From: Candidatus Angelobacter sp.
Lineage (GTDB): Bacteria; Acidobacteriota; Terriglobia; Acidiferrales; UBA7541
Assembly (NCBI GenBank): GCA_035606955.1
Contig: DATNDO010000043.1
Coordinates: 16,080 to 80,079 of the forward strand
Direction of reading: 5' to 3'
DNA: 64,000 nt
Positions 364 through 61,149 of this stretch are shown one piece after another. A program made the translations under genes and the position numbers. The notes beneath the pieces are model-generated. The model saw only the letters and a list, made by a program, of their open reading frames with translations. It was not told the origin of the DNA and made no database searches. The first letter of the stretch is position 1. Each line of letters begins with the position of its first letter.

Positions 364-1365
364 CTATGCTTTCCCGTGGCCATTTCTCCAAGTGTCTTCG
401 AGCGCGCGTCGCGTAAACACGCGCACCATGTCACGACGATATACCGGCGTCGAACCGGAAGTCGTCAGCGGCTTGCCCGTCTGAATTGCGGCGTGCGCGA
501 CGCGCTCCGCGAGCTCCAGCGACCATTTCCGGCCAATGAGCGATTCGCTTGCTTGCATCACCAACATCGGAGCCGGATTCACAGCTGAGAGAGCGACGCG
601 CGCATCTTTGCAAATACCGGCAGAGTCGACCTCCATCGCTACGGCTACGCCAGCGAGCGGGTAGTCGATCGAGTCCCGCACGCGCAACTTGTGATACACG
701 CCGCAGCGGCCGGCCATACGCGCAGGCACGTGAACGGCGGTGACCAATTCGTTGCGCGCCAGGGCGATGCGATCCATGCCGTCATTCTTATAGAAATCGC
801 GCAGGGCAACACGCCGCGTTCCCGAACGACCGGCGATTTCCAGTTCTGCGTCGAGTGTCAAAAATGCGGGCGCGGAGTCGCCTGACCACGCGGCCCAGCA
901 AAAGTTTCCGCCAGGCGCGACGTGGCAGATGTCGCCGTCTTTTTTCAAGCAGCCACCAAGCGACTGACGCCAGAAATGCGATTGGTTGTACCAGCGACAG
1001 CGCGTTTCCAGGCACAGGTTGCCGCCGATCGTCCCCATGTTGCGCTGCAGCGGGCCCGCAACTGTGCCAATTGCGCTCGCAAGCACCGGAAATTTCTCGC
1101 GGAGCCATGGTGTATCGAGAATATTGGTCAGCGTGGCTGTCGAGCCAATGCGCAAGCCGTCGCGCGGTGAAAAATCTATCGTCGCCAATTCTCGCAGGAG
1201 TTTCACGTCCACTAACACACGCGGCGTAAAAAGCCGCATCTGCAAGTTGGGAATCACGTCGGTGCCGCCCGCAATCACCATCGCATCGGAGCCGTGTTGA
1301 TCCAGCATGTTGACCGCGTCGGCGACCGTGCGCGGCTGCAGAACGTGAAATGCAGGAAGCGTCAT
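364..1365 (-). CDS. FAD-binding medium subunit of a molybdenum hydroxylase (CoxM/HcrB-like) with an extra Cys cluster
   Basis: 333 aa. It has an AGGTD FAD-binding N-terminus. Its start overlaps the stop of the large subunit (ATGA). Insert with C123-x15-C139-x7-C147-x8-C156. Confidence 0.85.
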   Translation of the reverse strand: MTLPAFHVLQPRTVADAVNMLDQHGSDAMVIAGGTDVIPNLQMRLFTPRVLVDVKLLRELATIDFSPRDGLRIGSTATLTNILDTPWLREKFPVLASAIGTVAGPLQRNMGTIGGNLCLETRCRWYNQSHFWRQSLGGCLKKDGDICHVAPGGNFCWAAWSGDSAPAFLTLDAELEIAGRSGTRRVALRDFYKNDGMDRIALARNELVTAVHVPARMAGRCGVYHKLRVRDSIDYPLAGVAVAMEVDSAGICKDARVALSAVNPAPMLVMQASESLIGRKWSLELAERVAHAAIQTGKPLTTSGSTPVYRRDMVRVFTRRALEDTWRNGHGKA

Positions 1366-3716
1366 CGAGGGCTCCCGGCAAGCGATGCCTTCTTCGGAGC
1401 ATTTGATCCATTGCCACCCGCCGACTTCTGTTTTTCGCGCAATGCGTCCAGGATCTTATCCGGCGTGATAGGAATCGAGTTGATGCGTACGCCGACGGCG
1501 TCGAAAATCGCATTCGCAATCGCTGGTATCGTTGCCGCGAGCGAGCCTTCGCCGGCCTCTTTCGCGCCAAATGGGCCTTCCGGATCGATACTCTCGACTA
1601 TAATCGACTCAATCTCCGGATTCTCTTTCGTTGCGGGAATGCGATATTCGAGCAACGATGGATTCATCAGGCGGCCATCTTTCCAGATCATGTCTTCCTG
1701 CAGCGCCTGTCCAAACCCCATATAAACCGATCCCTCGATCTGCCCTTCGACTGTAAGGGGATTCAGCGCTTTGCCGCAGTCGTGCGCCGCGACAATTTTA
1801 TCGACGTGAACGTGGCCCGTTTCTGGATCGACGGTGACTTCCGCAACTTGCGCGCTGTAGCTGTACGCCGGTGAAGGACCCACGCCAGCGCCCTTGAATT
1901 TTCCGCCGCGCGCCGTTTCGGGAGGCGCGTAAGTGCCGCGAGCCGACAGCGCTCCGTGAAATTCGAGTGCGACGGCAACTGCTTCGTCGAACGAAAAACT
2001 CTTGCTCGCATCGCTCGTGTGCGACATGCGTCCATTTTTCGCTTCGAAATCTTCCGCCGCGCAGCCGAACTTCTTTGCTACCGCCGCGACAATTTGGTCG
2101 CGCATATCTTTCGCCGCATTCAGGCACGCGTTGCCGGCCATGAACGTTACGCGGCTCGAATAACTGCCAAGGTCAATCGGCGTAAGTTCCGTATCGGCCG
2201 CGATCAGCTTGATGCGATCCGCGGTGACGCCAAGAACCTCCGCGGCAATTTGTACCTGCATCGTGTCCGAACCCTGGCCGATCTCGGAAGCGCCCGTGTA
2301 AACGGTGACCGCCGCGTCGCGATCAATTTTGATGTGCACGGTCGTGTGCGGCATGTTCGAGCGAATGATAGGATTCGCCGCGCCGCTGACGTAATGGCTG
2401 CACGCCATACCCACGCCCTTGCCATAGGGCAGCTTGCCTTTCTTCTCCGCCCAACCCGAACGCTCAAAAACTTTCTCGACGCATTCCGGCAAGCCGTAGC
2501 TTGTGACGCGAAGCGAATTCGCCGTAATGCATGGTGCCTTCAGCAAATTTCGCCTGCGAACTTCGAGAGGATCAAGTCCGGCCTGATACGCTAACTGGTC
2601 AAGGATCGACTCGAACGCGAAACGAACGTTAACTGTGCCGTGGCCGCGCATTGCGCCACACGCAGGCTTATTCGTGAGCACGCGAAAACCGTCGTATTGC
2701 ACATTCGCGATATCGTAAATCGCTCCGAGCAGCGCGCCCGAATAGAGCACCGTCACCGGGCCATAGCCGCAGTACGCGCCGCCGTCTTGAATCACACGCG
2801 CTTGCACCGCGGTAATCTTCCCCGCGCGAGTCATCCCCACTTTCAAATAAACGATAGTGATTGGCCGGCCGCGATGCGCCAGGAACACTTCCTCGCGCGT
2901 ATACGTGATCTTCACGGGCTTGCGCGATTTTTTCGCAAGCACGCACGCGGCAACTTCAAGAGGAATAATTTCGCTCTTGCCGCCGAAGCCGCCGCCGATC
3001 AGCGGCTTGATTACTCGAATCTGGCTCATCGGCATTTCGCAAACTGCTGCGATGGTGCGATGGAGGTAGAACGGCACTTGCGTGGAGGAATGAACCGTCA
3101 GGCGCTCATCCGGTTCCCAAACCGCGAGCGTTGCGTGCGGCTCCATGGCAGCCTGATTGACTTCGCCAGCGTAATAACGCTCTTCCGCAACGAAATCCGC
3201 CTCGCCAAAACCTTTCACCGGATCACCGAATACGTGGTGATATTCCTTTTCGATATTTTGCGGCCGCTCTTCATTGATCCAGTTCGAGGCCGCTTTCATG
3301 GATTGTTCGGGATCGAACCACGCAGGCAATTGCTCGTAGTCGACGCGAATCAAATCGAGCGCCTGCTCGGCGATTTCCGGAGTTGCCGCTGCCACAGCAG
3401 CGATGTTGTCGCCGATGTAGAGAGCCTTGCCAAGCGCGAAAGCCCGCTCGTCGTGACCAATCGGCAAAATGCCATAAGGATTGCGCGCGTCTTCGCCAGT
3501 CGCCGTTACTTTGACGCCCGCGAGCGCTTCGGCTTGCGAAGTATCGATCGAACGGATGCGCGCATGTGCATGGGGTGAATGCAGGATTTTCCCGATCAGC
3601 ATTCCAGGAACGGAAAGATCGTCCGCATACTTGCCAAGGCCCGTGACTTTGGCGCGAGCATCCGTCATCGCCATAGGCTTGCCGATGATGCTGAAGCCGT
3701 TGGTATTTTTCGCCAT
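1362..3716 (-). CDS. molybdopterin-binding large subunit of xanthine-oxidase-family hydroxylase (HcrA/CoxL-like)
   Basis: 784 aa. The N-terminus is typical of the aldehyde oxidase/xanthine dehydrogenase a/b-hammerhead (IGKPMAMTDARAKVTGLGKYADDL). GGGFGGK motif. It sits between the 2Fe-2S and FAD subunits. Confidence 0.9.
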   Translation of the reverse strand: MAKNTNGFSIIGKPMAMTDARAKVTGLGKYADDLSVPGMLIGKILHSPHAHARIRSIDTSQAEALAGVKVTATGEDARNPYGILPIGHDERAFALGKALYIGDNIAAVAAATPEIAEQALDLIRVDYEQLPAWFDPEQSMKAASNWINEERPQNIEKEYHHVFGDPVKGFGEADFVAEERYYAGEVNQAAMEPHATLAVWEPDERLTVHSSTQVPFYLHRTIAAVCEMPMSQIRVIKPLIGGGFGGKSEIIPLEVAACVLAKKSRKPVKITYTREEVFLAHRGRPITIVYLKVGMTRAGKITAVQARVIQDGGAYCGYGPVTVLYSGALLGAIYDIANVQYDGFRVLTNKPACGAMRGHGTVNVRFAFESILDQLAYQAGLDPLEVRRRNLLKAPCITANSLRVTSYGLPECVEKVFERSGWAEKKGKLPYGKGVGMACSHYVSGAANPIIRSNMPHTTVHIKIDRDAAVTVYTGASEIGQGSDTMQVQIAAEVLGVTADRIKLIAADTELTPIDLGSYSSRVTFMAGNACLNAAKDMRDQIVAAVAKKFGCAAEDFEAKNGRMSHTSDASKSFSFDEAVAVALEFHGALSARGTYAPPETARGGKFKGAGVGPSPAYSYSAQVAEVTVDPETGHVHVDKIVAAHDCGKALNPLTVEGQIEGSVYMGFGQALQEDMIWKDGRLMNPSLLEYRIPATKENPEIESIIVESIDPEGPFGAKEAGEGSLAATIPAIANAIFDAVGVRINSIPITPDKILDALREKQKSAGGNGSNAPKKASLAGSPR

Positions 3717-3718
3717 GG

Positions 3719-4225
3719 TCAGTGGGTCGCCGGAACATGCGCCGCGGACTTCGTTCGCAGCTTTTCAATCGCGTATTTCACGGACTCGTAGATTTGCATG
3801 TAGCCGGTGCAGCGGCAGAGATTGCCGGAGAGCGCTTCGCGAATCTCGTCCATGGAAGGCTCTGGATTGCGGTCGAGCAGGGCCTTTGTGGCAATCATGA
3901 ACCCTGGCGTGCAATAGCCGCATTGCGCGCCGCCCATTTCCGCATAGCCTTCCTGCACGGGATCAAGTTCACCTGGGCCGCCGAGTCCCTCGACCGTCGT
4001 GATTTCGCGCCCTTCGTAGCTGGCTGCGAGCGCGACGCAGGAAAGCATTGGCGTTCCGTCGATGAGCACCGCGCAGCAGCCGCAACTCGAATCGTCGCAG
4101 CCCCGCTTCGAACCAGTGAGGCCAAGATCTTCACGTAGCGCATCCAGTACGAGCCGATTCGGCGCGATGGCGATTTCGCGCTCTTCGCCATTGACGCGCA
4201 AGCGCATGAGTTCTTTGTTCACCAC
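3719..4225 (-). CDS. [2Fe-2S]-binding small subunit of molybdenum hydroxylase (HcrC/CoxS-like)
   Basis: 168 aa. It carries both 2Fe-2S cysteine motifs (GCDDSSCGCC and CGYCTPG...CRCTGY). GTG start next to AGGAG. Confidence 0.9.
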   Translation of the reverse strand: MVNKELMRLRVNGEEREIAIAPNRLVLDALREDLGLTGSKRGCDDSSCGCCAVLIDGTPMLSCVALAASYEGREITTVEGLGGPGELDPVQEGYAEMGGAQCGYCTPGFMIATKALLDRNPEPSMDEIREALSGNLCRCTGYMQIYESVKYAIEKLRTKSAAHVPATH

Positions 4226-4230
4226 GTCTC

Positions 4231-4581
4231 CTAGGCGAGCTTCTTCAGCGCTTCTTCGTCGTACCCCAGCACGATTTGTTTCCCGGAAATTACCACGGGC
4301 CTGCGAATCAGATTCGGCTCCGCAGCCATCATTTTCAAAGCGTCCGCGCGCGAGGGCGGATTTTCCTTCATATTCCGCTGACGATACAGCTCATTTCGCG
4401 TGTTCAAGAACAATCGGTAATCCCGTTCGCCGATTAGCTTGTCCAGTTCCGCGACCGTCAAACGATCTTGAGCCAGATCCCTTAGTTCCAGTTCAACCCC
4501 GCGTTCGAGCAAGAGACCTCTTGCTTTGCGGCAGGAGGTTCATGTCGGCTTGTGCCAGAATTTAATTTTTGTTTTCGCCAT
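4231..4581 (-). CDS. Spx/ArsC-family redox protein, candidate selenoprotein (TGA 4540-4542 read as Sec, UxxC motif)
   Basis: The ORF track shows only 4231..4512 (93 aa), which lacks the family N-terminus. The same frame upstream reads ATG(4581) MAKTKIKFWHKPT-TGA-TSCRKARGLLERGVELE. The total of 116 codons is typical for this family. The C-terminal LIRRPVVISGKQIVLGYDEE is the family signature. Confidence 0.7.
4499..4542 (-). promoter_or_regulatory. candidate bacterial SECIS hairpin following the in-frame UGA
   Basis: The mRNA reads UGA-ACCUCCUG-CCGC-AAA-GCAAGA-GGUC-UCUUGC-UCGAAC-GCGG. A perfect 6-bp upper stem with a GGUC loop starts 15 nt after the UGA. A possible 4-bp lower helix is CCGC/GCGG. 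Confidence 0.5.
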
Positions 4582-19684: not shown

Positions 19685-20029
19685 CTATTTCCCGGTGCGA
19701 TATAGGATTACGCGAACCTTTTCGAGCGTAATCAATCCGCCGCCGACCATCTCATCCAGCCGCGGCAATATCTGCTCGATTCGTTCGTTATATTCCACCA
19801 CTTCGATCACGATGGGAAGGTCCTGTGACAGCCGCAGAATCTTGTCTGTGTGATAAATGCTCGAAGAACCGTAGCCGCCGACGCCGCGCAGAACGGTCAC
19901 CCCTGAGAATTTCTCCGTGCGCAGCATCTCGACAATCGCCTGATAGAGCGGCTTGCCGTGCCAGTGGTCCGATTCTCCAATGTGTATTCGCATCAACGTG
20001 CGCTCGCCTTCGAATCGCTCGTGCGTCAT
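19685..20029 (-). CDS. DUF190 domain protein (commonly fluoride-riboswitch associated)
   Basis: 114 aa. It lies 9 nt downstream of crcB. KPLYQAIVEMLRTEKFSGVTVLRGVGGYG is typical of the family. Confidence 0.8.
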   Translation of the reverse strand: MTHERFEGERTLMRIHIGESDHWHGKPLYQAIVEMLRTEKFSGVTVLRGVGGYGSSSIYHTDKILRLSQDLPIVIEVVEYNERIEQILPRLDEMVGGGLITLEKVRVILYRTGK

Positions 20030-20038
20030 GCGCCCCTC

Positions 20039-20410
20039 CTAAATCGCATCGCCCAGCCGAATCCCCGCCAGCATCACAACCAACCCGAGCAGTACGCTCG
20101 CCGCCACGTACGCCGTTCCCTTCATCCATTCTCCGTCCTCTAACATCCGAATTGTTTCCCAACTGAATGTCGAGAACGTCGTGAACGCCCCAAAAAGTCC
20201 CACCGTCAAACCGATGCGCCAATCCGGCGAAATCGAAACATGATTTAGCGCAAATTTCCCAACCAGCCCCAGCAGAAAACACCCCACCAGATTCACGCTG
20301 AGCGTTCCATACGGGAAGCTCGAGCCTGATCTGTGCTGTACCAAACCCTCGAGACCGTACCGCGCCAGCGTTCCCGCAACACCAAATACGGCGAGTAGCA
20401 ATATACGCAC
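20039..20410 (-). CDS. crcB: fluoride ion channel CrcB/Fluc
   Basis: 123 aa with four TM segments. GAFTTFSTF signature. GTG start. A fluoride riboswitch lies upstream. Confidence 0.9.
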   Translation of the reverse strand: MRILLLAVFGVAGTLARYGLEGLVQHRSGSSFPYGTLSVNLVGCFLLGLVGKFALNHVSISPDWRIGLTVGLFGAFTTFSTFSWETIRMLEDGEWMKGTAYVAASVLLGLVVMLAGIRLGDAI

Positions 20411-25963: not shown

Positions 25964-27043
25964 TTGCCTGGGGAAAAGATTCTCGTCTGTGACGATGAAG
26001 AAGCGATTCGAGAGGTCGTTTCCACCCTCCTCGAAGCCCAGGGGTACCGCTGCACGGTTGTGCCCGACGGTTTTCAGGCCATGCAGGAAATCAAGAATGA
26101 CTCGCACGATCTCGTCCTCAGCGACATCGTAATGCCAGAAATGGACGGTATGCGACTGTTGCGACAGGTCCGCTCACAAGATGAGGACATTCCAGTCATC
26201 ATGGTCACCGCGATGCACGACATCTCTATCGCGCTGGAAGCAATTCGCGCCGGAGCTTACGATTACATTCTGAAACCCTTCGAGAAGGATCAGCTTTATC
26301 ACAGCGTTTCGCGGGCTCTGGAGCATAGGCATCTTGTCCTCGAGAACCGTTCCTACCAGCAAAACCTCGAGCACCTCGTCGCCGAACGCACCCAGCAGCT
26401 TTCGCTAACCCTGCGGGACCTTGAGCAATCGTATGACTACACCCTCGAAGCGCTTGGCGGGGCGCTTGACGCGAAAGACGCCGAAACAGAAGGGCACTGC
26501 CAGCGCGTGACCGCGATCACGATCCTCATCGCGAAAATCATGAAAGTCGAACGCGACCAGTTGCGACACATCGCCCGCGGCGCTTTCCTCCACGACATCG
26601 GAAAAATGGGAATCCCCGACCAGGTTCTGCGAAAGCCTGGCCCGCTCACGGATGAAGAACGTCTGCTCATGCGGCGCCACTGCGATATCGGCTACACCGT
26701 CCTGAACAAGATTCCCTTTCTAAAAGACGCAGCCGAAATTGTCCTCGCGCACCAGGAATGCTACAACGGGAGCGGTTACCCGCGTGGTTTGAAAGGCGAA
26801 GAAATTCCCCTTGGAGCCAGAATATTTGCCGTGGCTGACACGCTCGATGCCATGTGTTCCGACCGGCCATACCGCAAGGCTTTGCCGATTTCGGCGGCTC
26901 GCGACGAAATCAAAAAGTTCTCCGGAACGCAATTCGATCCCCGCGTTGTGTCCGCGTTTCTTTCCAAACCGGACGAATTCTGGACCGAACTTCGCAAGAA
27001 CATCGGCGACCCATTCAGATATCTGACAATGGATGAAAGCTAG
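25964..27043 (+). CDS. response-regulator receiver domain fused to HD-GYP phosphodiesterase domain
   Basis: TTG start with TAGGAG upstream. Receiver motifs DDEE...D...MPEMDG...K. HD-GYP motifs HDIGK and GSGYPRGL. Confidence 0.9.
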   Translation: MPGEKILVCDDEEAIREVVSTLLEAQGYRCTVVPDGFQAMQEIKNDSHDLVLSDIVMPEMDGMRLLRQVRSQDEDIPVIMVTAMHDISIALEAIRAGAYDYILKPFEKDQLYHSVSRALEHRHLVLENRSYQQNLEHLVAERTQQLSLTLRDLEQSYDYTLEALGGALDAKDAETEGHCQRVTAITILIAKIMKVERDQLRHIARGAFLHDIGKMGIPDQVLRKPGPLTDEERLLMRRHCDIGYTVLNKIPFLKDAAEIVLAHQECYNGSGYPRGLKGEEIPLGARIFAVADTLDAMCSDRPYRKALPISAARDEIKKFSGTQFDPRVVSAFLSKPDEFWTELRKNIGDPFRYLTMDES

Positions 27044-27183
27044 GGACATGCAGTTGGTAGTGTGCGGAAACCCGAACTGGGGCTCAGCGTGGGATTCGCG
27101 CCACGGCAATCCGAATACGCTTCCCGTACGTACTTCTGTTATTATAGGGCCTCGTTCGAGGTAGTTTGTTCAAGGAGAGATGC

Positions 27184-27765
27184 ATGAAGCGAATCGTTAC
27201 GATGGCGGTCGCATTGCTACTGGCGCTTTCTGTTTTGTCGTTCGCAGCGCAAGCGCAGGACCAGCAGGCGGCAATCACCACGACGAACCTGAAGGTCGGC
27301 GACGTTGCTCCGAATTTCTCTCTGCCCAGCGATCAACATGGTTCGGTATCACTGGACAGTTTTCGGGGCAAAAAGAACGTCATCCTCGCCTTCTACGTTC
27401 TCGCTTTCACCGGTGGTTGAACGAAGGAACTCCAGGCCTATCAGTCTGATTTGGCCAAGATCGAAGCAAGCGATTCGGTAATTTTCGGCGTCAGTATCGA
27501 TAGCCCTCCAGCTAACGCCGCATTCGCAAAGCAAATCGGTGTCACCTTTCCTTTGCTGAGCGATATGAACCGCACCGTCCTGAAGCAATACGGAATCGTG
27601 CAACCTTTCCCCTTGGGAACAGATAAAGTGGAATTTGCGCGACGCACCACGTTCGTGATTGACAAAGACGGCGTGATTAAGCACATCGATTTCGACACAA
27701 CGGCCATCGACCCGACGTCCGCCGTGACAATTTGTACGGGCCTTCACGAAAAACACGGAACGTAG
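27184..27765 (+). CDS. exported peroxiredoxin (AhpC/TSA-Bcp type), candidate selenoprotein (TGA 27418-27420 read as Sec)
   Basis: Track ORFs 27166..27420 and 27451..27765 are in the same frame, with only this TGA between them. The joined sequence reads VILAFYVLAFTGG-U-TKELQAYQ, so the TGA sits on the peroxidatic Cys of the FTxxCTxE motif. RRTTFVIDKDGVI lies downstream. AAGGAGAG precedes ATG 27184. Signal peptide present. Confidence 0.75.
27418..27456 (+). promoter_or_regulatory. candidate SECIS hairpin after the peroxiredoxin UGA
   Basis: GGCC-U-AUC-AGUCU-GAU-UU-GGCC at 27435-27456 starts 14 nt after the UGA. The apical loop contains GU. The stem is imperfect. Confidence 0.4.
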
Positions 27766-27779
27766 TACCTAACAGGGCT

Positions 27780-27810
27780 CGCAGGGGCTGAGACAAACTC
27801 AGCCCTTGCG
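27780..27810. terminator. bidirectional hairpin between convergent genes
   Basis: CGCAGGGGCUGAG-acaaa-CUCAGCCCUUGCG forms a 13-bp stem with one G-U or mismatch position. It lies between the peroxiredoxin stop and the end of the oxidase operon. No strong U-tract. Confidence 0.45.
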
Positions 27811-27923
27811 AAGTCTCCTTCTGCCTGCCAAGCATCTTTTGATTTCCCTTGCCGCACACACGCACCAGTCATGCGCGCTTATCATCTGGAATCGTTTTCG
27901 CCTGCAATGATGCGTGCGGAATC

Positions 27924-28223
27924 CTAATTCAAATGAAGAACGCCTTCGGACACTGAGTGGAAGGGAGAGCTAAACGTGGCGGGAACAAGAACGACTGACT
28001 CGCGGTGCATGTTGCGTCGAATACAGAGGAGCGAGAAAAAGCCCACAACAATCGATGTGGCCGGAATCACAAGAATCAAAATGCCGTGCCGCAAGGCCGC
28101 CTGGGCGGTCGGTCCCGTAGCTGCCGCGTCGCTATAGCAAAGAGCGCAGCCCTGAGCGAAAGTCGCCGAAGCACAAAGCGCCGCAGAAACTCCCGCAACC
28201 AGCATCTTAAGAGCAGTTCGCAT
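27924..28223 (-). CDS. small membrane protein at the 3' end of the oxidase operon
   Basis: 99 aa. Signal-like N-terminus, a CALC motif and one central TM segment. Confidence 0.4.
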   Translation of the reverse strand: MRTALKMLVAGVSAALCASATFAQGCALCYSDAAATGPTAQAALRHGILILVIPATSIVVGFFSLLCIRRNMHRESVVLVPATFSSPFHSVSEGVLHLN

Positions 28224-28286: not shown

Positions 28287-28610
28287 TCACGGGTGCAAAC
28301 GTACAATCCGCAAGCTATCCGGAAACACAAAAATCAAAATCATGACCAGACAGAAAACCAGCGAAGGAACGATAATCAAGAAGAGGCCGAGCTTCTCAAA
28401 TCGCAGATGCATGAAATACGCCACAATCAAAGCAGATTTGATCAACGACAAACCCACCAGAAGAACCAGCATGGGGTGCGGGTCAAGTTTCAAATAGGCA
28501 AGAAGGACCTCGACGCCGGTGAGAACTAGGAGCCAAAACCACACCCACATAAATAGCTTTTTCGTCGGCGCGTGGTGTGCTTCGATTGCGGATGTTCCAT
28601 GCGTGCTCAT
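28287..28610 (-). CDS. cytochrome c oxidase subunit IV (prokaryotic small subunit)
   Basis: 107 aa with three TM segments. It follows the subunit III genes. Confidence 0.7.
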   Translation of the reverse strand: MSTHGTSAIEAHHAPTKKLFMWVWFWLLVLTGVEVLLAYLKLDPHPMLVLLVGLSLIKSALIVAYFMHLRFEKLGLFLIIVPSLVFCLVMILIFVFPDSLRIVRLHP

Positions 28611-28625
28611 CGCTCGATATGCTCC

Positions 28626-29261
28626 TCAGCCCTTCAAGTTAACCGACATCAGATAGACCATTGGAAAAATGAACATCCACACCAAGTCGACAAAGTGCCA
28701 GTAAAGGCCGCTGACCTCGACGTGATCGGCATTAAATTTTCTGCGGCCGAAGCCCAACGCGATAATACACAAATAAATCACGCCAATCGAGACGTGCAGC
28801 ATGTGCAAGCCCGTCAAACCGAAGAACGTGCCGCCGAAAAGCGGGTCACCCCACTTATTCGACCACGGAGTCACGCCTTCCGCGAAAAGCCGGAACCACT
28901 CCATCATGTGTAGACCGACGAAAGCGACTCCTCCGACAGCGGTCAAGAGAATGTAAATTACAGCTTTCTTGATCTCGTTGCGATGCGCGGCGGCCACAGC
29001 CATAACCATCGTCAAGCTGCTTGACAAAAGAATAAACGTCAAAAACGTTGCGTTCGCGATTGCAGGATAAATCTCAAAGGGGCGCGGCCAGTTTGCGCTC
29101 GACAGGCGCACGTACGCGTACGCAAGAATCGCAGTCGAAAATGTGAGCGAGTCGGAAAGAAGGAACAGCCACATTCCGAGTTTCTTTGTATTTGTCGCAA
29201 AGGGAGCGACACCGCCACCCCAAGCCTGTCCCGCAACAGCGTCGACGTCCATTTCAGCCAA
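28626..29261 (-). CDS. ctaE: cytochrome c oxidase subunit III
   Basis: 211 aa. LHMLHVSIGVIYL and YWHFVDLVWMFIFPMVYL signatures. Confidence 0.85.
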   Translation of the reverse strand: MAEMDVDAVAGQAWGGGVAPFATNTKKLGMWLFLLSDSLTFSTAILAYAYVRLSSANWPRPFEIYPAIANATFLTFILLSSSLTMVMAVAAAHRNEIKKAVIYILLTAVGGVAFVGLHMMEWFRLFAEGVTPWSNKWGDPLFGGTFFGLTGLHMLHVSIGVIYLCIIALGFGRRKFNADHVEVSGLYWHFVDLVWMFIFPMVYLMSVNLKG

Positions 29262-29264
29262 GTA

Positions 29265-29912
29265 TCACCGTCCTAGCAAGAGAAGTAGGAAGAGAAAAAC
29301 CCACAGTCCATCCATGAAGTGCCAATACACCGACGTGATTTCCGTCGCCGTCGCAAATGTCAACCGGCGCAATTTTCCGCGTCCCACGTACAGCAACGCG
29401 ACAATGCCTCCAAGCAAGTGGAGCCCGTGAGCCGCTGTGAGCACATAGAAAAAACTGCCGCTCGCGTTTGTCGCCAGATAAAAGCCGGATATAACCATTT
29501 GTCGCCAAGCGATCACCTGCCCCGCGAGAAACAGGAAACCGAGAATCGTGGTAACCATCCACCAGTGCCGGAAACCTTCGCGGTCGCCTCGCGTGAAGAA
29601 GTGCCGAGCGCGCACAATCGTTAGGCTGCTGGCCAGCAGAATCAGCGTGTTCAACCACAGAATCCGCGGCATCGGAAATGCCTGCCAATCACTCCCGACA
29701 CCCTTCCGCACAATAAACGCACTGGCGAACGCCATAAAAAACATCAGTATGGCGGCCATCCCAATTGCTATTCCCGTTACATAAACGCGCTGCGGTATTC
29801 CAGAACGCCCGCTGGGCGAGCCGTCGTCGCCTCCCCCTGCAAAGGAAGGCGGCTTGCCTCCTCCGCCTGCTTCGATAATCTCGAGTTCTTCCGTTGTTGA
29901 CGTATGCGGCAT
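29265..29912 (-). CDS. second cytochrome c oxidase subunit III-family protein
   Basis: 215 aa. AAHGLHLLGG and YWHFMDGLWVFLF signatures. It has an N-terminal Gly-rich extension. Confidence 0.75.
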   Translation of the reverse strand: MPHTSTTEELEIIEAGGGGKPPSFAGGGDDGSPSGRSGIPQRVYVTGIAIGMAAILMFFMAFASAFIVRKGVGSDWQAFPMPRILWLNTLILLASSLTIVRARHFFTRGDREGFRHWWMVTTILGFLFLAGQVIAWRQMVISGFYLATNASGSFFYVLTAAHGLHLLGGIVALLYVGRGKLRRLTFATATEITSVYWHFMDGLWVFLFLLLLLGR

Positions 29913-29927
29913 GGCGGATCCCTGACG

Positions 29928-31685
29928 CTAGGCTTTAGCCACTTGCTCGGGCGCAACATCCTGCGGTATGAAATCCTCGGCCGCACCCGGCACGCTGTAT
30001 TCGTAGGGTCCACGATAGACCGTCGGATAATGACCGCCAAAATTGTCGTGCGGCACCGGCGTGCTCACCTGCCATTCAAGTGTCGTCGCGCGCCATGGAT
30101 TTCGCTCCGCCAGCTTGCCGTGCTTAATGCTCCAGAAGAAATTGAAATAGAAGAACAATTGCGCCGCGGCGGTTACGAATGCCGCGACACTGATGAATAC
30201 ATATACGGGTTGGAGGCGCGCCAAATAATGAACCGCGTCGGTGCTGGCGTAGCGTCGAGGATCGCCCGCATACCCGAGGTAGTGCATCGGCATAAAAATG
30301 CAATAGACACCCACAAAGGTCATCCAGAAGTGAATCTTCCCGAGAGTCTCGTTCATCATGTGCCCGAACATTTTGGGAAACCAATAGTACGTCGCGGCAA
30401 ACATCGCAAAAATTGCCGCGACGCCCATGATCAGGTGGAAGTGGCCAATCACGTAGTAGGTGTCATGCAGGTAGAGATCCAACGCCGGCTGCGCCAGGAA
30501 AATGCCGGAAAGGCCACCGGTTACGAACAGCGAAACGAAGCCGATGGCAAAGAGCATGGCAGCGGTGAATTGAATTCGCGCCCCCCAGAGTGTCCCAAGC
30601 CAATTGAACGTCTTGATTGCCGATGGCACTCCGATCACCAGTGTTAGAATCGAAAACGTCAGCGCCGAGTATGGATTCATTCCGCTGATGAACATGTGAT
30701 GGCCCCACACCATGAAGCTCAGGAAGCCAATCGCACTCAGCGAGTAGACCATCGCCTTGTAGCCGAACACAGGCTTCCGAGAAAACGTCGAAAGCACGTG
30801 CGAAATGATTCCCATGGCCGGGAGAATCGCGATGTACACTTCTGGATGCCCGAAGAACCAGAAGAGATGTTGCCAAAGCAGTGGCGAGCCGCCCGCGTGT
30901 TTGAGCAGGACACCGCTGACCATTTCTCCGCCGGGAATAAAGAAGCTGGTCATCGCCAGCCGGTCCAGAAGCAGCAGAATGCACGCGGCAAGAAGCACTC
31001 CGAATGCCAGCAGCGCGAGGCAGGCCGTTATGAACCAACCCCACACGGTCAGCGGCATGCGCATCAGCGAGAGCCCCTTAGTGCGCAGGTCAATTGTGGT
31101 CCCCAAGAAATTTATTGCCGACATCAGCGAAGCGCCGCAGAACAGCGCGATGCTCACGACCCAGAGCGTCTGGCCAAGTCCTTGACCCGGCCCCGCGACT
31201 ACGCCGACTGCACTTAGAGGCGCATAAGCTGTCCAGCCGCTGATTGGCGATCCACCCGGAACAAAGGCCGAGGAAAGCAGGACAAGCATCGACACAAACG
31301 TCAGCCAGAACGACATCATGTTGAGTGTGGGAAACGCCATGTCCGGCGCACCGATTTGAATCGGAAGGAAATAATTGCCAAAGCCGCTTTGCGGCACAGT
31401 TGTCAAAACGAAGAAAACCATCAGCGTGCCATGCATGGTAATGACGCGAAGGTAGTCCTCCGGTGAAACAACGCCGTTGGCAAATCCCCAAATGTGCGCA
31501 TTCGGCCAAGCGAGGTGAATCCGCATAATCACCGAAAGAATTACGCCAATCGTAACTGCGGACAGGCCAAGCAAGATGTACTGCGTGCCGATGATCTTGT
31601 GGTCCAAACTGAAAATATAATGCCGGAGCCAGCCTTTGGGCGCTTCCGAGTGGTGGACCGGACTAGCGTGCGAACTCATTGACAC
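29928..31685 (-). CDS. ctaD: cytochrome c oxidase subunit I (heme-copper oxidase, A-type)
   Basis: 585 aa. WFFGHPEVYI and HHMF motifs. Twelve or more TM segments. Confidence 0.95.
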   Translation of the reverse strand: MSMSSHASPVHHSEAPKGWLRHYIFSLDHKIIGTQYILLGLSAVTIGVILSVIMRIHLAWPNAHIWGFANGVVSPEDYLRVITMHGTLMVFFVLTTVPQSGFGNYFLPIQIGAPDMAFPTLNMMSFWLTFVSMLVLLSSAFVPGGSPISGWTAYAPLSAVGVVAGPGQGLGQTLWVVSIALFCGASLMSAINFLGTTIDLRTKGLSLMRMPLTVWGWFITACLALLAFGVLLAACILLLLDRLAMTSFFIPGGEMVSGVLLKHAGGSPLLWQHLFWFFGHPEVYIAILPAMGIISHVLSTFSRKPVFGYKAMVYSLSAIGFLSFMVWGHHMFISGMNPYSALTFSILTLVIGVPSAIKTFNWLGTLWGARIQFTAAMLFAIGFVSLFVTGGLSGIFLAQPALDLYLHDTYYVIGHFHLIMGVAAIFAMFAATYYWFPKMFGHMMNETLGKIHFWMTFVGVYCIFMPMHYLGYAGDPRRYASTDAVHYLARLQPVYVFISVAAFVTAAAQLFFYFNFFWSIKHGKLAERNPWRATTLEWQVSTPVPHDNFGGHYPTVYRGPYEYSVPGAAEDFIPQDVAPEQVAKA

Positions 31686-31738
31686 TCTCCCATGTTGCGG
31701 GTCCGTTATGATGATTACTCAAAGCCATAACTCTCACT

Positions 31739-32581
31739 TCACTGTCCGGCTTGAGCGTTCTGCGCCTCTTGCTTCTGCTCCCACTGCTGAAAATCGGCGT
31801 CAGACAGCACATGCAGCGTGGCATGCATGTGGTAGTGCCCCAAGCCGCAGAGCTGGTTGCAAGTGATTTCATAGTCGCCGATCTTGGTCACCGTAAAGTG
31901 CACGGGAATCACCAAGCCCGGAACCGTATCTTGCTTCACGCGCAACTCGCGCACAAAAAAGCTGTGGATGACGTCCTGCGAACGCAGCATCAACTCGATT
32001 TCCCTGTTAACCGGCAGATAGAGGTCTCCCGTCACAATATCGTCCTTACTCGCGGGGTCATTGGAGTCCAACCCTAATGGATTGCCCGTAGATGCATCGA
32101 TGTCTTTCGGATTGATGCGTCCAAATTTGCCATCCGGCCCGGGATAGCGAAAATTCCATACGAACTGCACGCCCGTAACCTCGACTTGCAGGGCTCCCGG
32201 CTGAGGCCCACCAAAATGCACTTCGCCCCACGCGTGAGCGGCCATCACGCCGAGACCAACGAAGATGACAAGAGTCGCCGTGGTCCACACGACTTCCAGC
32301 GTGTGGTTGCCGCGAACAAAGCGCGCCTTCTGCCCGTGGTCGCGATACCGGAAGACCATCCAAGCCAGTGCTAGTTGCGCCAGCACGAAAACAATTCCTG
32401 TCAGTATGAACGTGACGAAGAATTGCTGATCAATTTGACCACCGACGGGAGTTATCGCAGCGGGAAACCACCATGTCTTTGCAACGTGGAAATAGACGGT
32501 CGAACCGACCAAAATGAGGATAACGATTGCCAACAGGACGGCCGGTACTGACGAGCCGGCACACGATTTTCGCGAAACCAT
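31739..32581 (-). CDS. ctaC: cytochrome c oxidase subunit II (CuA), no fused cytochrome c domain
   Basis: 280 aa. CuA motif HSF...CNQLCGLGHYHM. Confidence 0.9.
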   Translation of the reverse strand: MVSRKSCAGSSVPAVLLAIVILILVGSTVYFHVAKTWWFPAAITPVGGQIDQQFFVTFILTGIVFVLAQLALAWMVFRYRDHGQKARFVRGNHTLEVVWTTATLVIFVGLGVMAAHAWGEVHFGGPQPGALQVEVTGVQFVWNFRYPGPDGKFGRINPKDIDASTGNPLGLDSNDPASKDDIVTGDLYLPVNREIELMLRSQDVIHSFFVRELRVKQDTVPGLVIPVHFTVTKIGDYEITCNQLCGLGHYHMHATLHVLSDADFQQWEQKQEAQNAQAGQ

Positions 32582-52782: not shown

Positions 52783-54717
52783 CTAGGTGACGCCCGGCGC
52801 ATCCGCAAAGCTGCGGCTCAGTTCACGGTAGATCAGCCACGCCGCCACAATCGCCAGCAGAGTCAGGAACGTTCCAGAGCCCCAGTGGCGCAAAAGCAAT
52901 TTCCCAACGCCAAATAGCGCCCCATACGTCATCGCGCAGCCAAGAATCCAGCACCATAAATTGCGCGCCAGGCCGTGCGTCTGTGGAATTTCGGGAGCTC
53001 GCGCGGCGATTGGCCGCCATCCCGTTATTTGCGGCCGCACCTTGCGATAGAACGCCAGCAACTTCGCATCGGGTTCAGGCTTGGTCAGCAACGTCACGAT
53101 GATCCATACAAACGAAGTCGCCAGCGTCGCCGTCAACGCCGTCTTTGCAAAAACCACGGAGCTCGAGCCCACGAAAAGCTCCGGCCTGTGCACCAACCAC
53201 TGCGACAATCGCTCTGAGCGCACTCCCAGCACTACAACCAGCGAAGTCGCCATCGCTGAAATTTCGCTCCACGCATTGATTCGCCACCAATACCACCGCA
53301 GCAAATAAACGCTGCCAGTCCCCGCGCCAAGCTCCAGCACGTCCTGCCAGCCGGAGAGAATCGAAGCCAAATGCGCCGAGACGTATCCCGTCACAACAAC
53401 CAGAAGCAGCGTCACAACGCGCGAAACATACACATAGTGACGCTCGCTTCCGTTACGTTTGATGAATCGCCGGTAACCATCTTCCACCAGATACGACGTG
53501 CCCCAGTTCAACTGCGTCGCAATCGTCGACATGAACGCAGCCAGAAACCCCGCCAGAATAATTCCGCGCAGCGCGTGCGGCACATGGTTTGTGACGATCA
53601 GCATGTAACTCGTCTCGGGATGCGTCAGCCCCGGATACAGCACAATCGCGGCAAGCGCCGTGAAAATCCATGGCCATGGGCGCACCGCGTACTGCGCGAT
53701 GTTGAACCACAAAACGGAATACAGTCCCTCGCGCTCGTTGCGCGCGCTGAAAATCCGCTGCGCGATGTATCCGCCCCCGCCGGGCTCCGCGCCCGGATAC
53801 CAGAACGCCCACCACTGAATTCCCAGATAAACCACGAAAGTAATCACAGGCAATGTCCACAGCGCTTCGCTGGAAAAACCGCGCGAGAAATCCGGGAAAA
53901 ACGCCAGAGGGTCCGAGCCGCCGTTCACTGCGCGCATCGCTTCGATTTTTGCGGTCATGGGACCCACGCCGCCCGCCGCAATCACGCCGTAATACGCCAC
54001 CACGATCACGATTCCCATTTTCAGCACGAACTGGAACAAATCCGTCCACAGCACGCCCCACAATCCTCCCAACGAAACGTAAATCCCCGTGAACGGAATC
54101 AGAAAGAAAATGCAGATTGCCAGCGCTTGCCCGTTCGTGCCTGCAAACGCTGGACCAAAAATTTGACTCAGCCAGTTCACGAATCCTGTGAACACCGGCC
54201 ACCCCTGCATCGTTGGCCCCATCGTCGTGCCAATGATCAGGATCATTGCTTTCGTCACCCAGCCGAGGATCAGGCAATTCATCAACAGGCCAAGATAGAT
54301 CGCGCGGAATCCCCGCAGAAACGCCGCCGGCTTTCCCGCGTATCGCATCTCCGCAAATTGCACGTCGGTCATCAGTCCTGAGCGTCGCCACAGTTTTGCG
54401 AACAGAAACACGGTCATCATTCCGGAAAGCAAAAATGCCCACCAGATCCAGTTCCCCGCAATTCCCTGCGTGTAGACGATTCCAGCGACGAGCAATGGCG
54501 TGTCCGCGGAAAATGTTGTCGCCACCATCGACGTTCCCGCCAGCCACCACGACACTCTGCGCCCTGATACGAAGTAATCTTCGGTGCTTTTCCCCGAGCG
54601 CCGCCGAAAATAGAGTCCCAAGAGAAGGGTTATCGCCAGGTAACCGAGAATTGCGGTCCAGTCGAGCGGTGTGAATGTCACGCGCGCATCATTCTCCGGC
54701 CAAATAACAGCCATCAC
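52783..54717 (-). CDS. sodium:solute symporter family (SSF) transporter
   Basis: 644 aa with 13 or more TM segments. It is the last gene of the hydroxyproline cluster. Confidence 0.85.
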   Translation of the reverse strand: MMAVIWPENDARVTFTPLDWTAILGYLAITLLLGLYFRRRSGKSTEDYFVSGRRVSWWLAGTSMVATTFSADTPLLVAGIVYTQGIAGNWIWWAFLLSGMMTVFLFAKLWRRSGLMTDVQFAEMRYAGKPAAFLRGFRAIYLGLLMNCLILGWVTKAMILIIGTTMGPTMQGWPVFTGFVNWLSQIFGPAFAGTNGQALAICIFFLIPFTGIYVSLGGLWGVLWTDLFQFVLKMGIVIVVAYYGVIAAGGVGPMTAKIEAMRAVNGGSDPLAFFPDFSRGFSSEALWTLPVITFVVYLGIQWWAFWYPGAEPGGGGYIAQRIFSARNEREGLYSVLWFNIAQYAVRPWPWIFTALAAIVLYPGLTHPETSYMLIVTNHVPHALRGIILAGFLAAFMSTIATQLNWGTSYLVEDGYRRFIKRNGSERHYVYVSRVVTLLLVVVTGYVSAHLASILSGWQDVLELGAGTGSVYLLRWYWWRINAWSEISAMATSLVVVLGVRSERLSQWLVHRPELFVGSSSVVFAKTALTATLATSFVWIIVTLLTKPEPDAKLLAFYRKVRPQITGWRPIAARAPEIPQTHGLARNLWCWILGCAMTYGALFGVGKLLLRHWGSGTFLTLLAIVAAWLIYRELSRSFADAPGVT

Positions 54718-54826: not shown

Positions 54827-56446
54827 TTAAGCCGATCTTACTTCCGCCGTCGCGGCCAACTTGTCACGAGTCATCTGTCCATCGACGAGTCGCCAAATTC
54901 CCATCGGGTTTTCGTTCTTCAGCTCATCGGGAAGCGCTATATTGGGGAAATCCTGATAACAAACAGGCCGCGCGAAGCGATAAATCGCTTGCGTCCCCAC
55001 CGAAGTCGAACGCCCATCGGACGTCGCCGGGTAGGGTCCTCCATGCACCATCGCATGGCAAACTTCCACGCCGGTTGGATAGCCGTTGAAAATCAATCTT
55101 CCAACCTTGGTCTGAAGTATCGCGACCAGGTCCGCAAACTCGCGTAGGTCATCCTCGGTGCCGTGCAGCGTAGCCGTCAAATGTCCTTCCAGTCCTCGCG
55201 CAATTGCCAGGAGTTCATCACGGGAATTCTGGCGGACGATCAATGTCGAAGGTCCGAAAATCTCGGACTGCAGGTTTTCATTCTCGATAAACGCAGGCGC
55301 ATCCGTTTCGAAAAGCGCTGTACCCACCCGAAAACCACTTGCTGCCGCCTCCTCGCCAGCGCGCGGCCCCTGACGGACTTTCTCTTCGCGGCTCCTGGCC
55401 TCGACCCCGGTGCGATAGGCTTCATGGATTCTCGACGTCAGCAGAGTGAACTCGCCGCTCGCCTTCATCAACTCGCGCAGACTCGTCGCAAATTCTCGTG
55501 CGGATGCGTCATCCCCAACCACCACAACTCCAGGCTTCGTGCAGAACTGTCCAGCCCCCAGTGTCACCGAGGCGTGCACTCCCTTCGCGATTTCGGCGCC
55601 TCTTTCCTTCATCGCTCCGGGGAGAATGAAAACGGGATTTGTGCTGCTCATTTCGGCAAACACCGGAATCGGCTCCGGGCGCGCGGTCGCCGCGTCCATC
55701 AGCGCGCGTCCTCCGTTTCTTGATCCTGTGAATCCCACTGCCTTGATCGCGGCGTGATTGACGAGTGCCAAACCCACTTCTGTTCCCGCATCGAACAGCA
55801 GTGAAAAAATCCCTTCAGGCAAGCCCGATTCTTTCACCGCGCGTTGAATCGCCTGCCCGACCATCTCCGCCGTGCCCGGATGCGCTGCGTGCGCCCGCAC
55901 TACCACGGGACTCCCAGCGGCGAGCGCCGACGCTGTATCGCCTCCGGCCACCGAAAACGCAATCGGAAAATTGCTCGCGCAAAAAACCGCTACCGGTCCG
56001 AGCGCTCTCCACAACGAACGTATATCCGGCTTGGGCGCAGGCTTGCGCCCAGGATCTCCGCGGTCAATTCGCGCGCCTACCCACGATCCTTCTTCCACCA
56101 CTTCCGCGAAAAGCCGAAGCTGAAAACAGGTTCGCGCCGTTTCATTCTTGATTCTTGCTGGCGGCAGCGCTGTTTCCTGCACGGCTCGCGTGACCAAATC
56201 ATCGCCCAGGCCCTCGATTTGCTCCGCAATCTTTCTCAGCAGCGCGCCTTTCGTCTTTCCGGATGCGCCGCTGTACACAGGGAACGCGCTCGCCGCCATT
56301 CGCGCAGCGGAGTCCGTCTCTTTCGCACCAGCGGAATAATAATTCGGCTCAAGCTCCTGTCCCGTGGCGGGATTTATCGCGTGGAATATCTTGCCGCCCG
56401 TCTTGCCTAATTCACTCCCGAGGATCGATCTGCCAGTTAATCCCAT
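54827..56446 (-). CDS. NADP-dependent aldehyde dehydrogenase, alpha-ketoglutarate semialdehyde dehydrogenase-like
   Basis: 539 aa. ALDH fold with catalytic GQFCTKPG. Its length and context match KGSADH of hydroxyproline and sugar-acid pathways. Confidence 0.75.
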   Translation of the reverse strand: MGLTGRSILGSELGKTGGKIFHAINPATGQELEPNYYSAGAKETDSAARMAASAFPVYSGASGKTKGALLRKIAEQIEGLGDDLVTRAVQETALPPARIKNETARTCFQLRLFAEVVEEGSWVGARIDRGDPGRKPAPKPDIRSLWRALGPVAVFCASNFPIAFSVAGGDTASALAAGSPVVVRAHAAHPGTAEMVGQAIQRAVKESGLPEGIFSLLFDAGTEVGLALVNHAAIKAVGFTGSRNGGRALMDAATARPEPIPVFAEMSSTNPVFILPGAMKERGAEIAKGVHASVTLGAGQFCTKPGVVVVGDDASAREFATSLRELMKASGEFTLLTSRIHEAYRTGVEARSREEKVRQGPRAGEEAAASGFRVGTALFETDAPAFIENENLQSEIFGPSTLIVRQNSRDELLAIARGLEGHLTATLHGTEDDLREFADLVAILQTKVGRLIFNGYPTGVEVCHAMVHGGPYPATSDGRSTSVGTQAIYRFARPVCYQDFPNIALPDELKNENPMGIWRLVDGQMTRDKLAATAEVRSA

Positions 56447-56475
56447 TGCAAAGCTCCTCTTTCCGGAAAGTCAAT

Positions 56476-57396
56476 CTACGCTCGAGTCGTTTCCCGCTCG
56501 GCATTCCGTCCGGGCCGTGTCTTCAGGGCCGCTCGGATAATCATCCTCGCCTCGTCCAATTCCTTGCCCTCCAACTCCATCCTCGGCGGACGCACTCGCG
56601 CATTACCCATTCCAGCTTCCTGCTGCACCAGTTTGATCAGTTGCACGAACTTCGGAACCGTGTCCATCCGCAAAAGCGGTAGAAACCATTTGTAAATTGC
56701 AGAAGCCTCGTCGATTTTCCCTTCGGCCGCAAAGCGAAACAAGTCCACGGACTCTTCTGGTAGCGCATTGACGAGTCCCGCAATCCACCCCACCGCTCCC
56801 GCTTGCACGCCTTCGACAATCGCATCATCGACGCCCATAAAAATCGCCAGCCGGTCTCCCAGCAGCGCGCGAATCGCCGTTACGCGCCGCACGTCGGTGC
56901 TTGATTCCTTTACGGACTCCAGATTCTTGTGTTCATTCGCCAGTTCGGCGATTTGCTCCGGCAAAAAATCCGTCCCGTACGACACGGGATTGTTGTAAAG
57001 CATGCATGGCAGTTTTGTCGCGCGCATCACCGCTACTACGTGCGATTTCATTTCCCGCCAGTCCCCGCGATAAACGTACGGCGGCAAAATCATCACGCCA
57101 GCGCATCCCTTGTCCGCTGCCGCCTTCGCCAATTCCACCGCTTCCGTGGTCCGCAGGGAAGATATCGCCGCTACGACAGGCACTTTCTTGCCTACGGACT
57201 GCACGCAAGTTTCGATCACTGCGACCTTCTCTACATATTCGAGCGTCGCGCCCTCTCCCAGCGACCCCAATGGCACGATTCCCGTGCATCCGTGTTCCAC
57301 CAGCCAGCGGCAATGGTTCGCAACAAAATCGTGATCTATCTTGTAGTCGCGGTCAAAGCACGTCGTAATTGCCGGCATCACCCCTGTCCAGTTCAT
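56476..57396 (-). CDS. DapA/dihydrodipicolinate-synthase-family lyase, likely pyrroline-4-hydroxy-2-carboxylate deaminase
   Basis: 306 aa class I aldolase fold (GIVPLGSLGEG, YNNP). The functional call comes from gene context. Confidence 0.75.
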   Translation of the reverse strand: MNWTGVMPAITTCFDRDYKIDHDFVANHCRWLVEHGCTGIVPLGSLGEGATLEYVEKVAVIETCVQSVGKKVPVVAAISSLRTTEAVELAKAAADKGCAGVMILPPYVYRGDWREMKSHVVAVMRATKLPCMLYNNPVSYGTDFLPEQIAELANEHKNLESVKESSTDVRRVTAIRALLGDRLAIFMGVDDAIVEGVQAGAVGWIAGLVNALPEESVDLFRFAAEGKIDEASAIYKWFLPLLRMDTVPKFVQLIKLVQQEAGMGNARVRPPRMELEGKELDEARMIIRAALKTRPGRNAERETTRA

Positions 57397-57421
57397 TGGT
57401 GCTCCTTATGTATTAGCAAAT

Positions 57422-61010: not shown

Positions 61011-61149
61011 AAACTCTTTGTTCGCCAGAAGCAGAATAAGCGGAAACACACCTCACCGCAGTCTGTGAAACATTGAAATATAACCCGTTGAATATACTAT
61101 ATACAAGACGTTTGCTATCTTTCACTTCTTCGCACCTCTGGAGGCACCC

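Follow-up and report, generated by a model that had tools for sequence, protein, structure and literature searches.

We analyzed a 64-kb stretch of DNA from Candidatus Angelobacter sp. (contig DATNDO010000043.1; hereafter the window) and propose that its forward-strand segment 27184–27765 very probably encodes one exported Bcp/AhpE-like peroxiredoxin (Prx) with selenocysteine (Sec) as the peroxidatic residue. The segment forms one continuous frame under selection, with a TGA at the catalytic column, a Sec/Cys pair at that column among relatives, and a selected hairpin tied to the TGA. By analogy with known enzymes, we infer that the protein incorporates selenium and acts as a peroxidase. An earlier reading of this DNA, made from the sequence alone, had described an exported Prx with Sec at the UGA and a selenocysteine insertion sequence (SECIS), and had disfavored a sequencing error or a pseudogene; the TGA in orthologs, the selection on the frame, and the hairpin support that overall reading. 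Enzymes of this type, the TxxU Sec-peroxiredoxins, have been known since 2001; the traits peculiar to the present protein are its signal peptide, a Val in place of a motif Pro, an invariant C-terminal Cys, and its synteny.

One reading frame across an in-frame UGA

The coding sequence (27184–27765, + strand) comprises 193 residues followed by a TAG, with one in-frame UGA, and is defined by its translation, by a match to the Pfam family PF00578, and by the ratio of nonsynonymous to synonymous substitution rates (dN/dS) given below. Two open reading frames (ORFs), 27166–27420 and 27451–27765, lie in a common frame. Translation of 27184–27768 revealed the TGA at 27418–27420 as the sole internal stop, with the TAG at 27763–27765 as the terminal one, bearing out the sequence-only reading that this TGA separates two ORFs in one frame. 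The product around the TGA reads ...NVILAFYVLAFTGG*TKELQAYQSDL..., where the asterisk marks the UGA codon presumably read as Sec (27418–27420, +; residue 79), and further downstream ...RRTTFVIDKDGVIKH.

Upstream of the ATG at 27184, at a distance of 6 nt, we read a Shine-Dalgarno-like AAGGAG (27172–27177, +), in agreement with the good ribosome-binding site (RBS) claimed earlier. The N-terminus MKRIVTMAVALLLALSVLSFAAQA (27184–27255, +) passes from basic residues through a hydrophobic core to AQA, after which cleavage is expected. By inspection, it has the right shape for the signal peptide that had been proposed, of the Sec (export) type. The succession of MKR, hydrophobic stretch, and small-x-small residues is kept in all orthologs on inspection of the alignment, and the equivalent region is of low confidence in the AF2 model of the homolog P0034 described below. 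Export of the product of 27184–27765 through this signal peptide is accordingly a prediction from the sequence of its N-terminus.

The UGA is conserved and the frame beyond it is under selection

Relatives were compared at the DNA level in two sets. The genome set comprised the best 80 of at least ~600 matched stretches, with one genome per GTDB species, and the metagenome set comprised the best 80 of at least ~600 matched stretches from a scan seeded with a more divergent subclade. The 80 genome loci all came from metagenome-assembled genomes (MAGs) of Acidobacteriota (Candidatus Acidiferrales, Sulfotelmatobacter, Terriglobia), with 58–96% identity to the window protein. Each of them (80/80) carried TGA at the catalytic codon, followed by a conserved continuation to the natural stop. 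The same codon was TGA in 80/80 metagenome loci, which represent a second subclade with TKQLQAVQ... after the stop. With the window counted, TGA was present in 161/161 sequences from many assemblies.

Between the window and its orthologs, dN/dS was 0.159 over 43 codons before the TGA and 0.136 over 112 codons after it, with a dS of ~1.8 over the whole region downstream. The frame downstream of the TGA measured 112–115 codons in 79/81 sequences. Because dN/dS is low and the frame length is conserved, the region after the TGA must be translated and under selection. The sequence-only reading had held an error or pseudogene to be less likely, and had named split orthologs with divergent sequence beyond the TGA as the pattern expected if it were wrong. 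What we observed was a TGA kept in 160/160 loci and a conserved downstream sequence under purifying selection.

A protein search returned ~2,100 relatives, and in the best 120 of these the TGA column held W in 59, C in 51, and G, S, and K in 1 each, with 7 sequences outside the motif pattern. The closest relatives, encoded on short JGI contigs, show Trp at this column, and more distant ones show Cys. The earlier suggestion to compare TGA with TGC/TGT among orthologs was likewise informative, as Cys codons (TGC or TGT) occupy the column in the more distant loci L161 and L163–L169, save L167 with TCA, giving a Sec/Cys pair. Two soil contigs inside the TGA clade lie one base from TGA and retain an intact hairpin: L162 has TGT (1009–1011) and L167 has TCA (737–739). 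Very recent conversion from Sec to Cys or Ser could explain them, as could an inactive allele or sequencing errors.

The Trp entries (59/120) and the one Gly at the catalytic column are likely an annotation artefact that arises when gene callers read short contigs with genetic code 4 (or 25), because the DNA of a contig encoding one such protein has TGA: P0001's own contig (L175, 283–285) reads ggt ggc tga acg, and its translation with table 11 gives a stop. No exact-match link of the Trp-bearing proteins to the retrieved loci was found. Use of code 4 or 25 by this genome was considered and rejected, because TGA serves as an ordinary stop that ends 18/48 long ORFs.

A SECIS-type hairpin follows the UGA

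The segment GGCC-U-AUCA-GUC-UGAU-UU-GGCC (27435–27456, +) begins 14 nt after the UGA and has the features of a bacterial SECIS-type (bSECIS) hairpin, as judged from its minimum free energy (MFE) fold, covariation, and frozen synonymous sites. The MFE structure (−9.0 kcal/mol for a 31-nt segment) is the hairpin with a GU-containing loop that had been drawn from the sequence at this position. It pairs 27435–27438 with 27453–27456 in a lower stem and 27440–27443 with 27447–27450 in an apical stem, with a bulged U at 27439 and the apical loop GUC at 27444–27446 (all on the + strand). The bulged U on the 5' side is also a point of resemblance to the Escherichia coli fdhF element.

Published limits for bSECIS elements are a loop of 3–9 nt, an upper stem of 4–16 bp, a UGA-to-loop distance of 16–37 nt, and an MFE of −7.5 kcal/mol or lower (PMC13188914, Fig. 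2 legend); the loop carries a G in its first two positions, usually with G or U next (PMC13188914). The hairpin lies within all of these limits, with a 3-nt loop in which U follows G, a 4-bp apical and a 4-bp lower stem, a distance of 23 nt, and the energy given above. Like E. coli fdhF and the consensus bSECIS, it is a coding-region hairpin 3' of the UGA with a small loop of G then U/G and with spacing, stem, and energy in the accepted range; its sequence is unrelated, and it lacks an Rfam SECIS match.

Pairing is maintained across relatives. In subclade 1, to which the window belongs, 99.1% of cells were paired and 3/8 pairs showed changes on both sides. Across both subclades (109 distinct sequences), the apical stem was 99.3% paired, with pair 23:33 being AU in 55 and UA in 51 and pair 24:32 being UA in 56 and CG in 52. 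The lower stem also has alternatives, namely CG, GC, and UA at pair 21:36 and GC and AU at pair 18:39. No shuffled control matched this pairing (0/500), and register-shifted controls were 16–39% paired.

Synonymous sites point in the same direction. Third-codon entropy was 0.22 bits within the hairpin vs 1.22 elsewhere, with none of the 60 sliding windows scoring lower, and in the second subclade it was 0.35 bits within the hairpin vs 1.14 elsewhere. In established genes of the Cys type (SEGC-TKQ..AVQAG; one comes from a Methylomirabilota MAG), the V-Q-A-G peptide is likewise present but is spelled with different synonymous codons, and with just 1–2/4 apical pairs formed the hairpin is degraded. 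Because V-Q-A-G is encoded in these genes without an intact hairpin, the hairpin tracks the TGA and not the peptide. Together, these sequence comparisons support the assignment of 27435–27456 as a putative bacterial SECIS.

The UGA occupies the peroxidatic position of a Bcp/AhpE-like peroxiredoxin

With the TGA read as Cys, the window protein matched AhpC-TSA (PF00578) with E = 2.5e-33 and 115 bits against a cutoff of 26, over profile positions 1–124/124. The match covers residues 38–168, across the UGA. In a comparison with PDB sequences, the TGA column fell on the Cys of AFTQVCTKE in the Sulfolobus tokodaii Prx 2ywn, a Cys that serves as the peroxidatic residue in the TxxC motif of peroxiredoxins; Sulfolobus Bcp4 and Mycobacterium tuberculosis AhpE ranked next. 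Alignment to Cys-type Bcp/Prx homologs had been put forward as a check on the placement of the TGA at the peroxidatic Cys of the AhpC/TSA-Bcp type, and both this alignment and the Pfam match agree with that placement. The canonical motif cited at the time, FTPGCTKE, holds for the position of the Cys/TGA but not for its Pro, which is a Val here.

The active site reads T-G-G-U (Thr76...Sec79; 27409–27420, +), a TxxU form of TxxC by alignment to 2ywn. Position 76 is Thr in 160/160 TGA-type relatives and Ser in older Cys-type relatives. The conserved Arg region noted earlier downstream of the UGA was recovered as Arg154 (27643–27645, +), the conserved Prx active-site Arg, which is invariant in alignments A1 and A5 and matches the Arg of ...AKRAVFVIDKEG in 2ywn. 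A C-terminal extension past the Pfam domain carries the invariant Cys184 (27733–27735, +), a candidate resolving Cys whose equivalent sits in a predicted C-terminal helix of the P0034 model. We take the 105-residue spacing between Sec79 and Cys184 to resemble that of Prx5-type atypical 2-Cys enzymes.

P0034 is a Cys-type homolog that is 50% identical to the window protein, and its AF2 model has a pLDDT of 79 and a pTM of 0.75. The top Foldseek matches of this model were all peroxiredoxins (Bcp1 3drn, AhpE, and Bcp4), and the fold match to AhpE/Bcp enzymes gave a TM-score normalized to the target of ~0.75–0.85. By sequence, the closest solved relatives are AhpE (1xvw), Bcp1/Bcp4 (3drn/3hjp), and 2ywn, with E = 1e-23 to 1e-27. 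The window protein shares their active-site context, AF(T)xxC-TKE, as well as the conserved Arg; unlike it, these enzymes use Cys and carry neither a signal peptide nor a Cys-bearing extension at the C-terminus.

Peroxiredoxins with Sec (PF00578/COG1225, TxxU) form an established family that was verified experimentally in Eubacterium acidaminophilum (PMC13188914), whose PrxU is the prototype (Sohling et al., 2001, as cited in PMC13188914). The window protein shares with PrxU and its family the AhpC/TSA domain, Sec at the peroxidatic TxxU, a bSECIS directly after the UGA, and widespread Cys homologs. It differs from PrxU by its signal peptide, the Val for the motif Pro, and the invariant Cys184, and the gene differs by its acidobacterial distribution and a conserved synteny of its own. 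It also scored below the PrxU equivalog model NF040737 (47.7 bits against a curated cutoff of 270). A second group of selenoproteins, the Prx-like thiol:disulfide oxidoreductases (UxxC/UxxU), belongs to the same Pfam clan and was predicted by Sec/Cys pairing; these are defined by a thioredoxin-like UxxC, whereas the window protein has TxxU and no Cys at +3.

Points of doubt and alternative readings

Several observations weigh against a selenium-dependent Prx. The review motif for Sec-peroxiredoxins is PxxxTxxU (PMC13188914), and the Pro of PxxxTxxC/U is replaced in the window protein by Val72 (YVLAFTGGU). This Val is invariant in the family alignment A1, and across the 160 loci the position is Val, with Ile in a few. 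With Val at the motif Pro across the family, peroxidase chemistry cannot be taken for granted. On its own, the sequence folds with an unremarkable energy (z = −0.5 to −1.4 for segments of the Prx hairpin), and the significance of the hairpin comes from its comparison with relatives. The covariation contains few independent events, because most counts reflect one deep subclade split; there is more than one, as L019–L023, L035–L042, L069, and L070 differ separately. The SECIS covariance search that had been recommended with the sequence-only reading did not come out in its favor, as no Rfam SECIS family matched 27100–27900 even at E ≤ 10. Finally, no tRNA-Sec was found in the window, which is 64 kb of a 309-kb contig, nor in ~820 kb of related loci, and no SelA, SelB, or SelD family match appeared among the main likely-gene ORFs of at least ~320 residues in the window. 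This unobserved Sec machinery in the 64-kb window is the main residual uncertainty.

Replacement of the motif Pro by Val throughout the family is also what would be seen if the selenoprotein served as an envelope thiol-disulfide oxidoreductase or redox sensor and not as a peroxidase, a function that we regard as unlikely. It would suit the failure of any NCBIfam Prx model to reach its cutoff with the window protein (the BCP model PRK09437 gave 80 bits vs 140), the presence of ResA among the weak NCBIfam matches and of ResA-type structures in the fold search, and the synteny with a signaling regulator and a cytochrome oxidase operon described below. The active site argues for a peroxidase instead: Sec is followed by T-K-E-L with no Cys or Sec at +3, so that neither CxxC nor the UxxC/UxxU redox motif is present, and Thr76 and Arg154 are conserved, with Thr76 changing to Ser just in Cys-type relatives. 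The best sequence and structure matches, 2ywn, Bcp1, Bcp4, and AhpE, are moreover true peroxiredoxins.

That the Sec machinery was not seen in the sequence examined would also fit an inserted residue other than Sec. The UGA could be recoded to Cys by a tRNA-Sec-like tRNA(Cys) with a SelB paralog, to Ser by an acidobacterial allo-tRNA, or to Trp through near-cognate reading, and unusual tRNAs have indeed been discussed as suppressors: 8/4 and 9/3 tRNAs in Acidobacteria may be nonsense suppressors, and the selC* tRNA(Cys) may be an opal suppressor in deltaproteobacteria (Mukai et al., PMC5389517). We consider any such recoding very improbable. The hairpin under selection has the geometry and the G[U/G] loop of a SelB-dependent bSECIS, and an enzyme with Ser or Trp as its catalytic residue would presumably be inactive. 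Recoding to Cys would make the TGA pointless beside TGC or TGT, one step away, yet 160/160 loci keep TGA, and selC* was not among the tRNAs reported for Acidobacteria (PMC5389517). General suppression is at odds with the use of TGA as a normal stop elsewhere in the genome.

A true stop at the TGA would make the locus a pseudogene, an error of sequencing or assembly, or a pair of small genes (78 + 104 residues). This would fit the 78-residue AhpC-TSA fragment and separate 66-residue ORF that gene callers give on source contigs and the lack of Sec machinery in the window, but it can practically be dismissed, as 161 independent sequences, drawn from many assemblies, all have the TGA at this codon, purifying selection and frame length hold downstream, the stop would cut the Prx fold right at the catalytic residue, and directly after the UGA no start codon or RBS was seen and a conserved RNA hairpin is found. 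Pseudogene, sequencing error, and two separate genes were rejected on the conserved TGA and the downstream selection.

A second gene with an in-frame UGA

The sequence-only reading had pointed to a second case of this kind in the window, and an ArsC/Spx-like gene at 4231–4581 (− strand), with an in-frame TGA at 4542–4540 and a U-x-x-C motif, proved to be real and is a further candidate selenoprotein gene. It came from a targeted motif search, a crude six-frame read-through scan being too noisy. The product, MAKTKIKFWHKPT-U-TSCRKARG..., matched the ArsC family with E = 7.8e-18 and fell below the cutoff of the NCBIfam model ArsC_rel_Se_1 (33.9 vs 85). A hairpin at 4525–4508 (−), with 7 bp and the loop GGUC at 4518–4515, lies 21 nt after the UGA. 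A covariance model built from the UGA and hairpin alignment of the Prx gene matched only its own hairpin in the window (68 bits) and missed that of the ArsC-like gene. Relatives of the ArsC-like protein at ~72% identity have Cys at the TGA column (CTSCRKA), and close relatives are called as 93-residue truncations. At the DNA level, two loci (L173 and L174) preserve the TGA together with the hairpin and the frame upstream. We count this gene, along with the conserved UGA and hairpin of the Prx gene and the selenoproteins already listed for Acidobacteria (PMC1794560), as indirect evidence that the organism decodes Sec.

The ArsC-like gene heads a set of the xanthine-dehydrogenase/CO-dehydrogenase family that lies directly downstream (364–4225, −) and consists of a [2Fe-2S] subunit (3719–4225, −), a molybdenum cofactor (MoCo)-binding subunit (1362–3716, −), and an FAD-binding subunit (364–1365, −). 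A rhodanese gene stands just upstream of the ArsC-like gene in L173 and L174. Some molybdenum hydroxylases use a selenium cofactor, and the pairing of an ArsC-like Sec gene with a molybdenum-hydroxylase-type set may not be accidental.

Genomic context of the peroxiredoxin gene

Upstream of the Prx gene, after a gap of 140 nt, lies a response regulator with an HD-GYP-type HD_5 domain (25964–27043, +; Pfam Response_reg and HD_5). An HD-GYP-type response regulator occurs upstream on the same strand in 64/80 genome loci. Downstream and convergent is an aa3-type cytochrome c oxidase operon with COX4, two COX3, COX1, and COX2 genes (28287–32581, −; Pfam), and COX4, COX3, and COX1 are downstream and convergent in 57–60/80 genome loci. 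As an association alone, this synteny may point to a function in aerobic respiration.

Between the Prx gene and the operon, at the tail of the latter, we noticed a 99-residue ORF (27924–28223, −) whose N-terminus resembles a signal peptide and which also carries a C-x-x-C (GCALCY) and a hydrophobic segment. Pfam gave no match for it, and it is conserved downstream of the Prx gene in 40/80 genome loci. An 8-bp GC-rich hairpin, GGGCTGAG-ACAAA-CTCAGCCC (27785–27805), separates the Prx gene from this convergent small ORF; it could be a bidirectional terminator, lacks a T-run, and was not called in the terminator scan. The Cys-type relatives (L161, L163–L165, L168, and L169; one Methylomirabilota MAG) have the Prx gene followed by a convergent GGDEF-domain gene. 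Both types thus have a neighbor of the cyclic-di-GMP signaling type, GGDEF with Cys-type genes and the HD-GYP regulator with Sec-type genes of Candidatus Acidiferrales.

Over the whole window, an Rfam scan at gathering thresholds returned only two tRNAs and a fluoride riboswitch (RF01734; 20468–20529, −; 55 bits, E = 1.4e-12). The 164-residue ORF directly downstream of the riboswitch (19788–20282, −) had no Pfam match at E ≤ 1e-5. A cluster at 54827–62214 resembles hydroxyproline/proline catabolism, with a 4-hydroxyproline epimerase (60048–61049), a second proline-racemase-family gene (61150–62214), two FAD oxidoreductases, and an aldehyde dehydrogenase, and is adjoined by a sodium/solute symporter (52783–54717).

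Discussion

The features of 27184–27765 suggest how its product could be made and could work. Following the known bacterial mechanism, the hairpin 14 nt after the UGA at 27418–27420 most likely recruits SelB with Sec-tRNA(Sec); Sec would be inserted at the UGA, and translation would go on to the TAG at 27763. The signal peptide would direct a mature enzyme of 169 residues to the cell envelope. There, by the chemistry of peroxiredoxins, Thr76 and Arg154 would activate the selenolate of Sec79, which would then reduce peroxides and become a selenenic acid. Cys184 is the best candidate for the resolving residue and would form a selenenylsulfide, which an envelope thiol reductant might then recycle.

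The known picture of Sec decoding and of Sec-peroxiredoxins is unchanged by these results, and a Sec-peroxiredoxin as such will not surprise specialists. What makes them useful is how broadly the clade occurs among soil Acidobacteria, together with the annotation artefacts and the conserved synteny. The family proved to be mis-annotated in each source that we examined. The annotation of source contigs splits the gene into ORFs of 78 and 66 residues, and function or active-site chemistry inferred from mis-annotated records would mislead.

Acidobacteriota have been little discussed in the selenoproteome literature. Selenoproteins of three families, four proteins in all, were listed for Acidobacteria (PMC1794560), a 2026 review on selenoproteins does not mention Acidobacteriota (PMC13188914), and our literature search for Sulfotelmatobacter with selenocysteine found nothing. 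Because all 160 loci, the best of at least ~600 per scan, have TGA, selenium use may be common in soil Acidobacteriota.

The aa3 oxidase operon and the HD-GYP regulator beside the gene, together with the predicted export, lead to the idea of an envelope peroxide defence in aerobic respiration. Tentatively, and with more doubt than confidence, we suggest that the window protein is the founding member of a previously undescribed clade of seleno-peroxiredoxins that act in the envelope and extend across the Acidobacteriota. This clade would be marked by the Val for Pro, an invariant C-terminal resolving Cys, and a fixed position between HD-GYP and aa3 genes in Candidatus Acidiferrales, and it would be abundant in aerobic soils and invisible in public annotation, which breaks it into fragments or gives it a Trp. 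If this is true, the envelope peroxide defence of dominant soil bacteria would have an unrecognized dependence on selenium.

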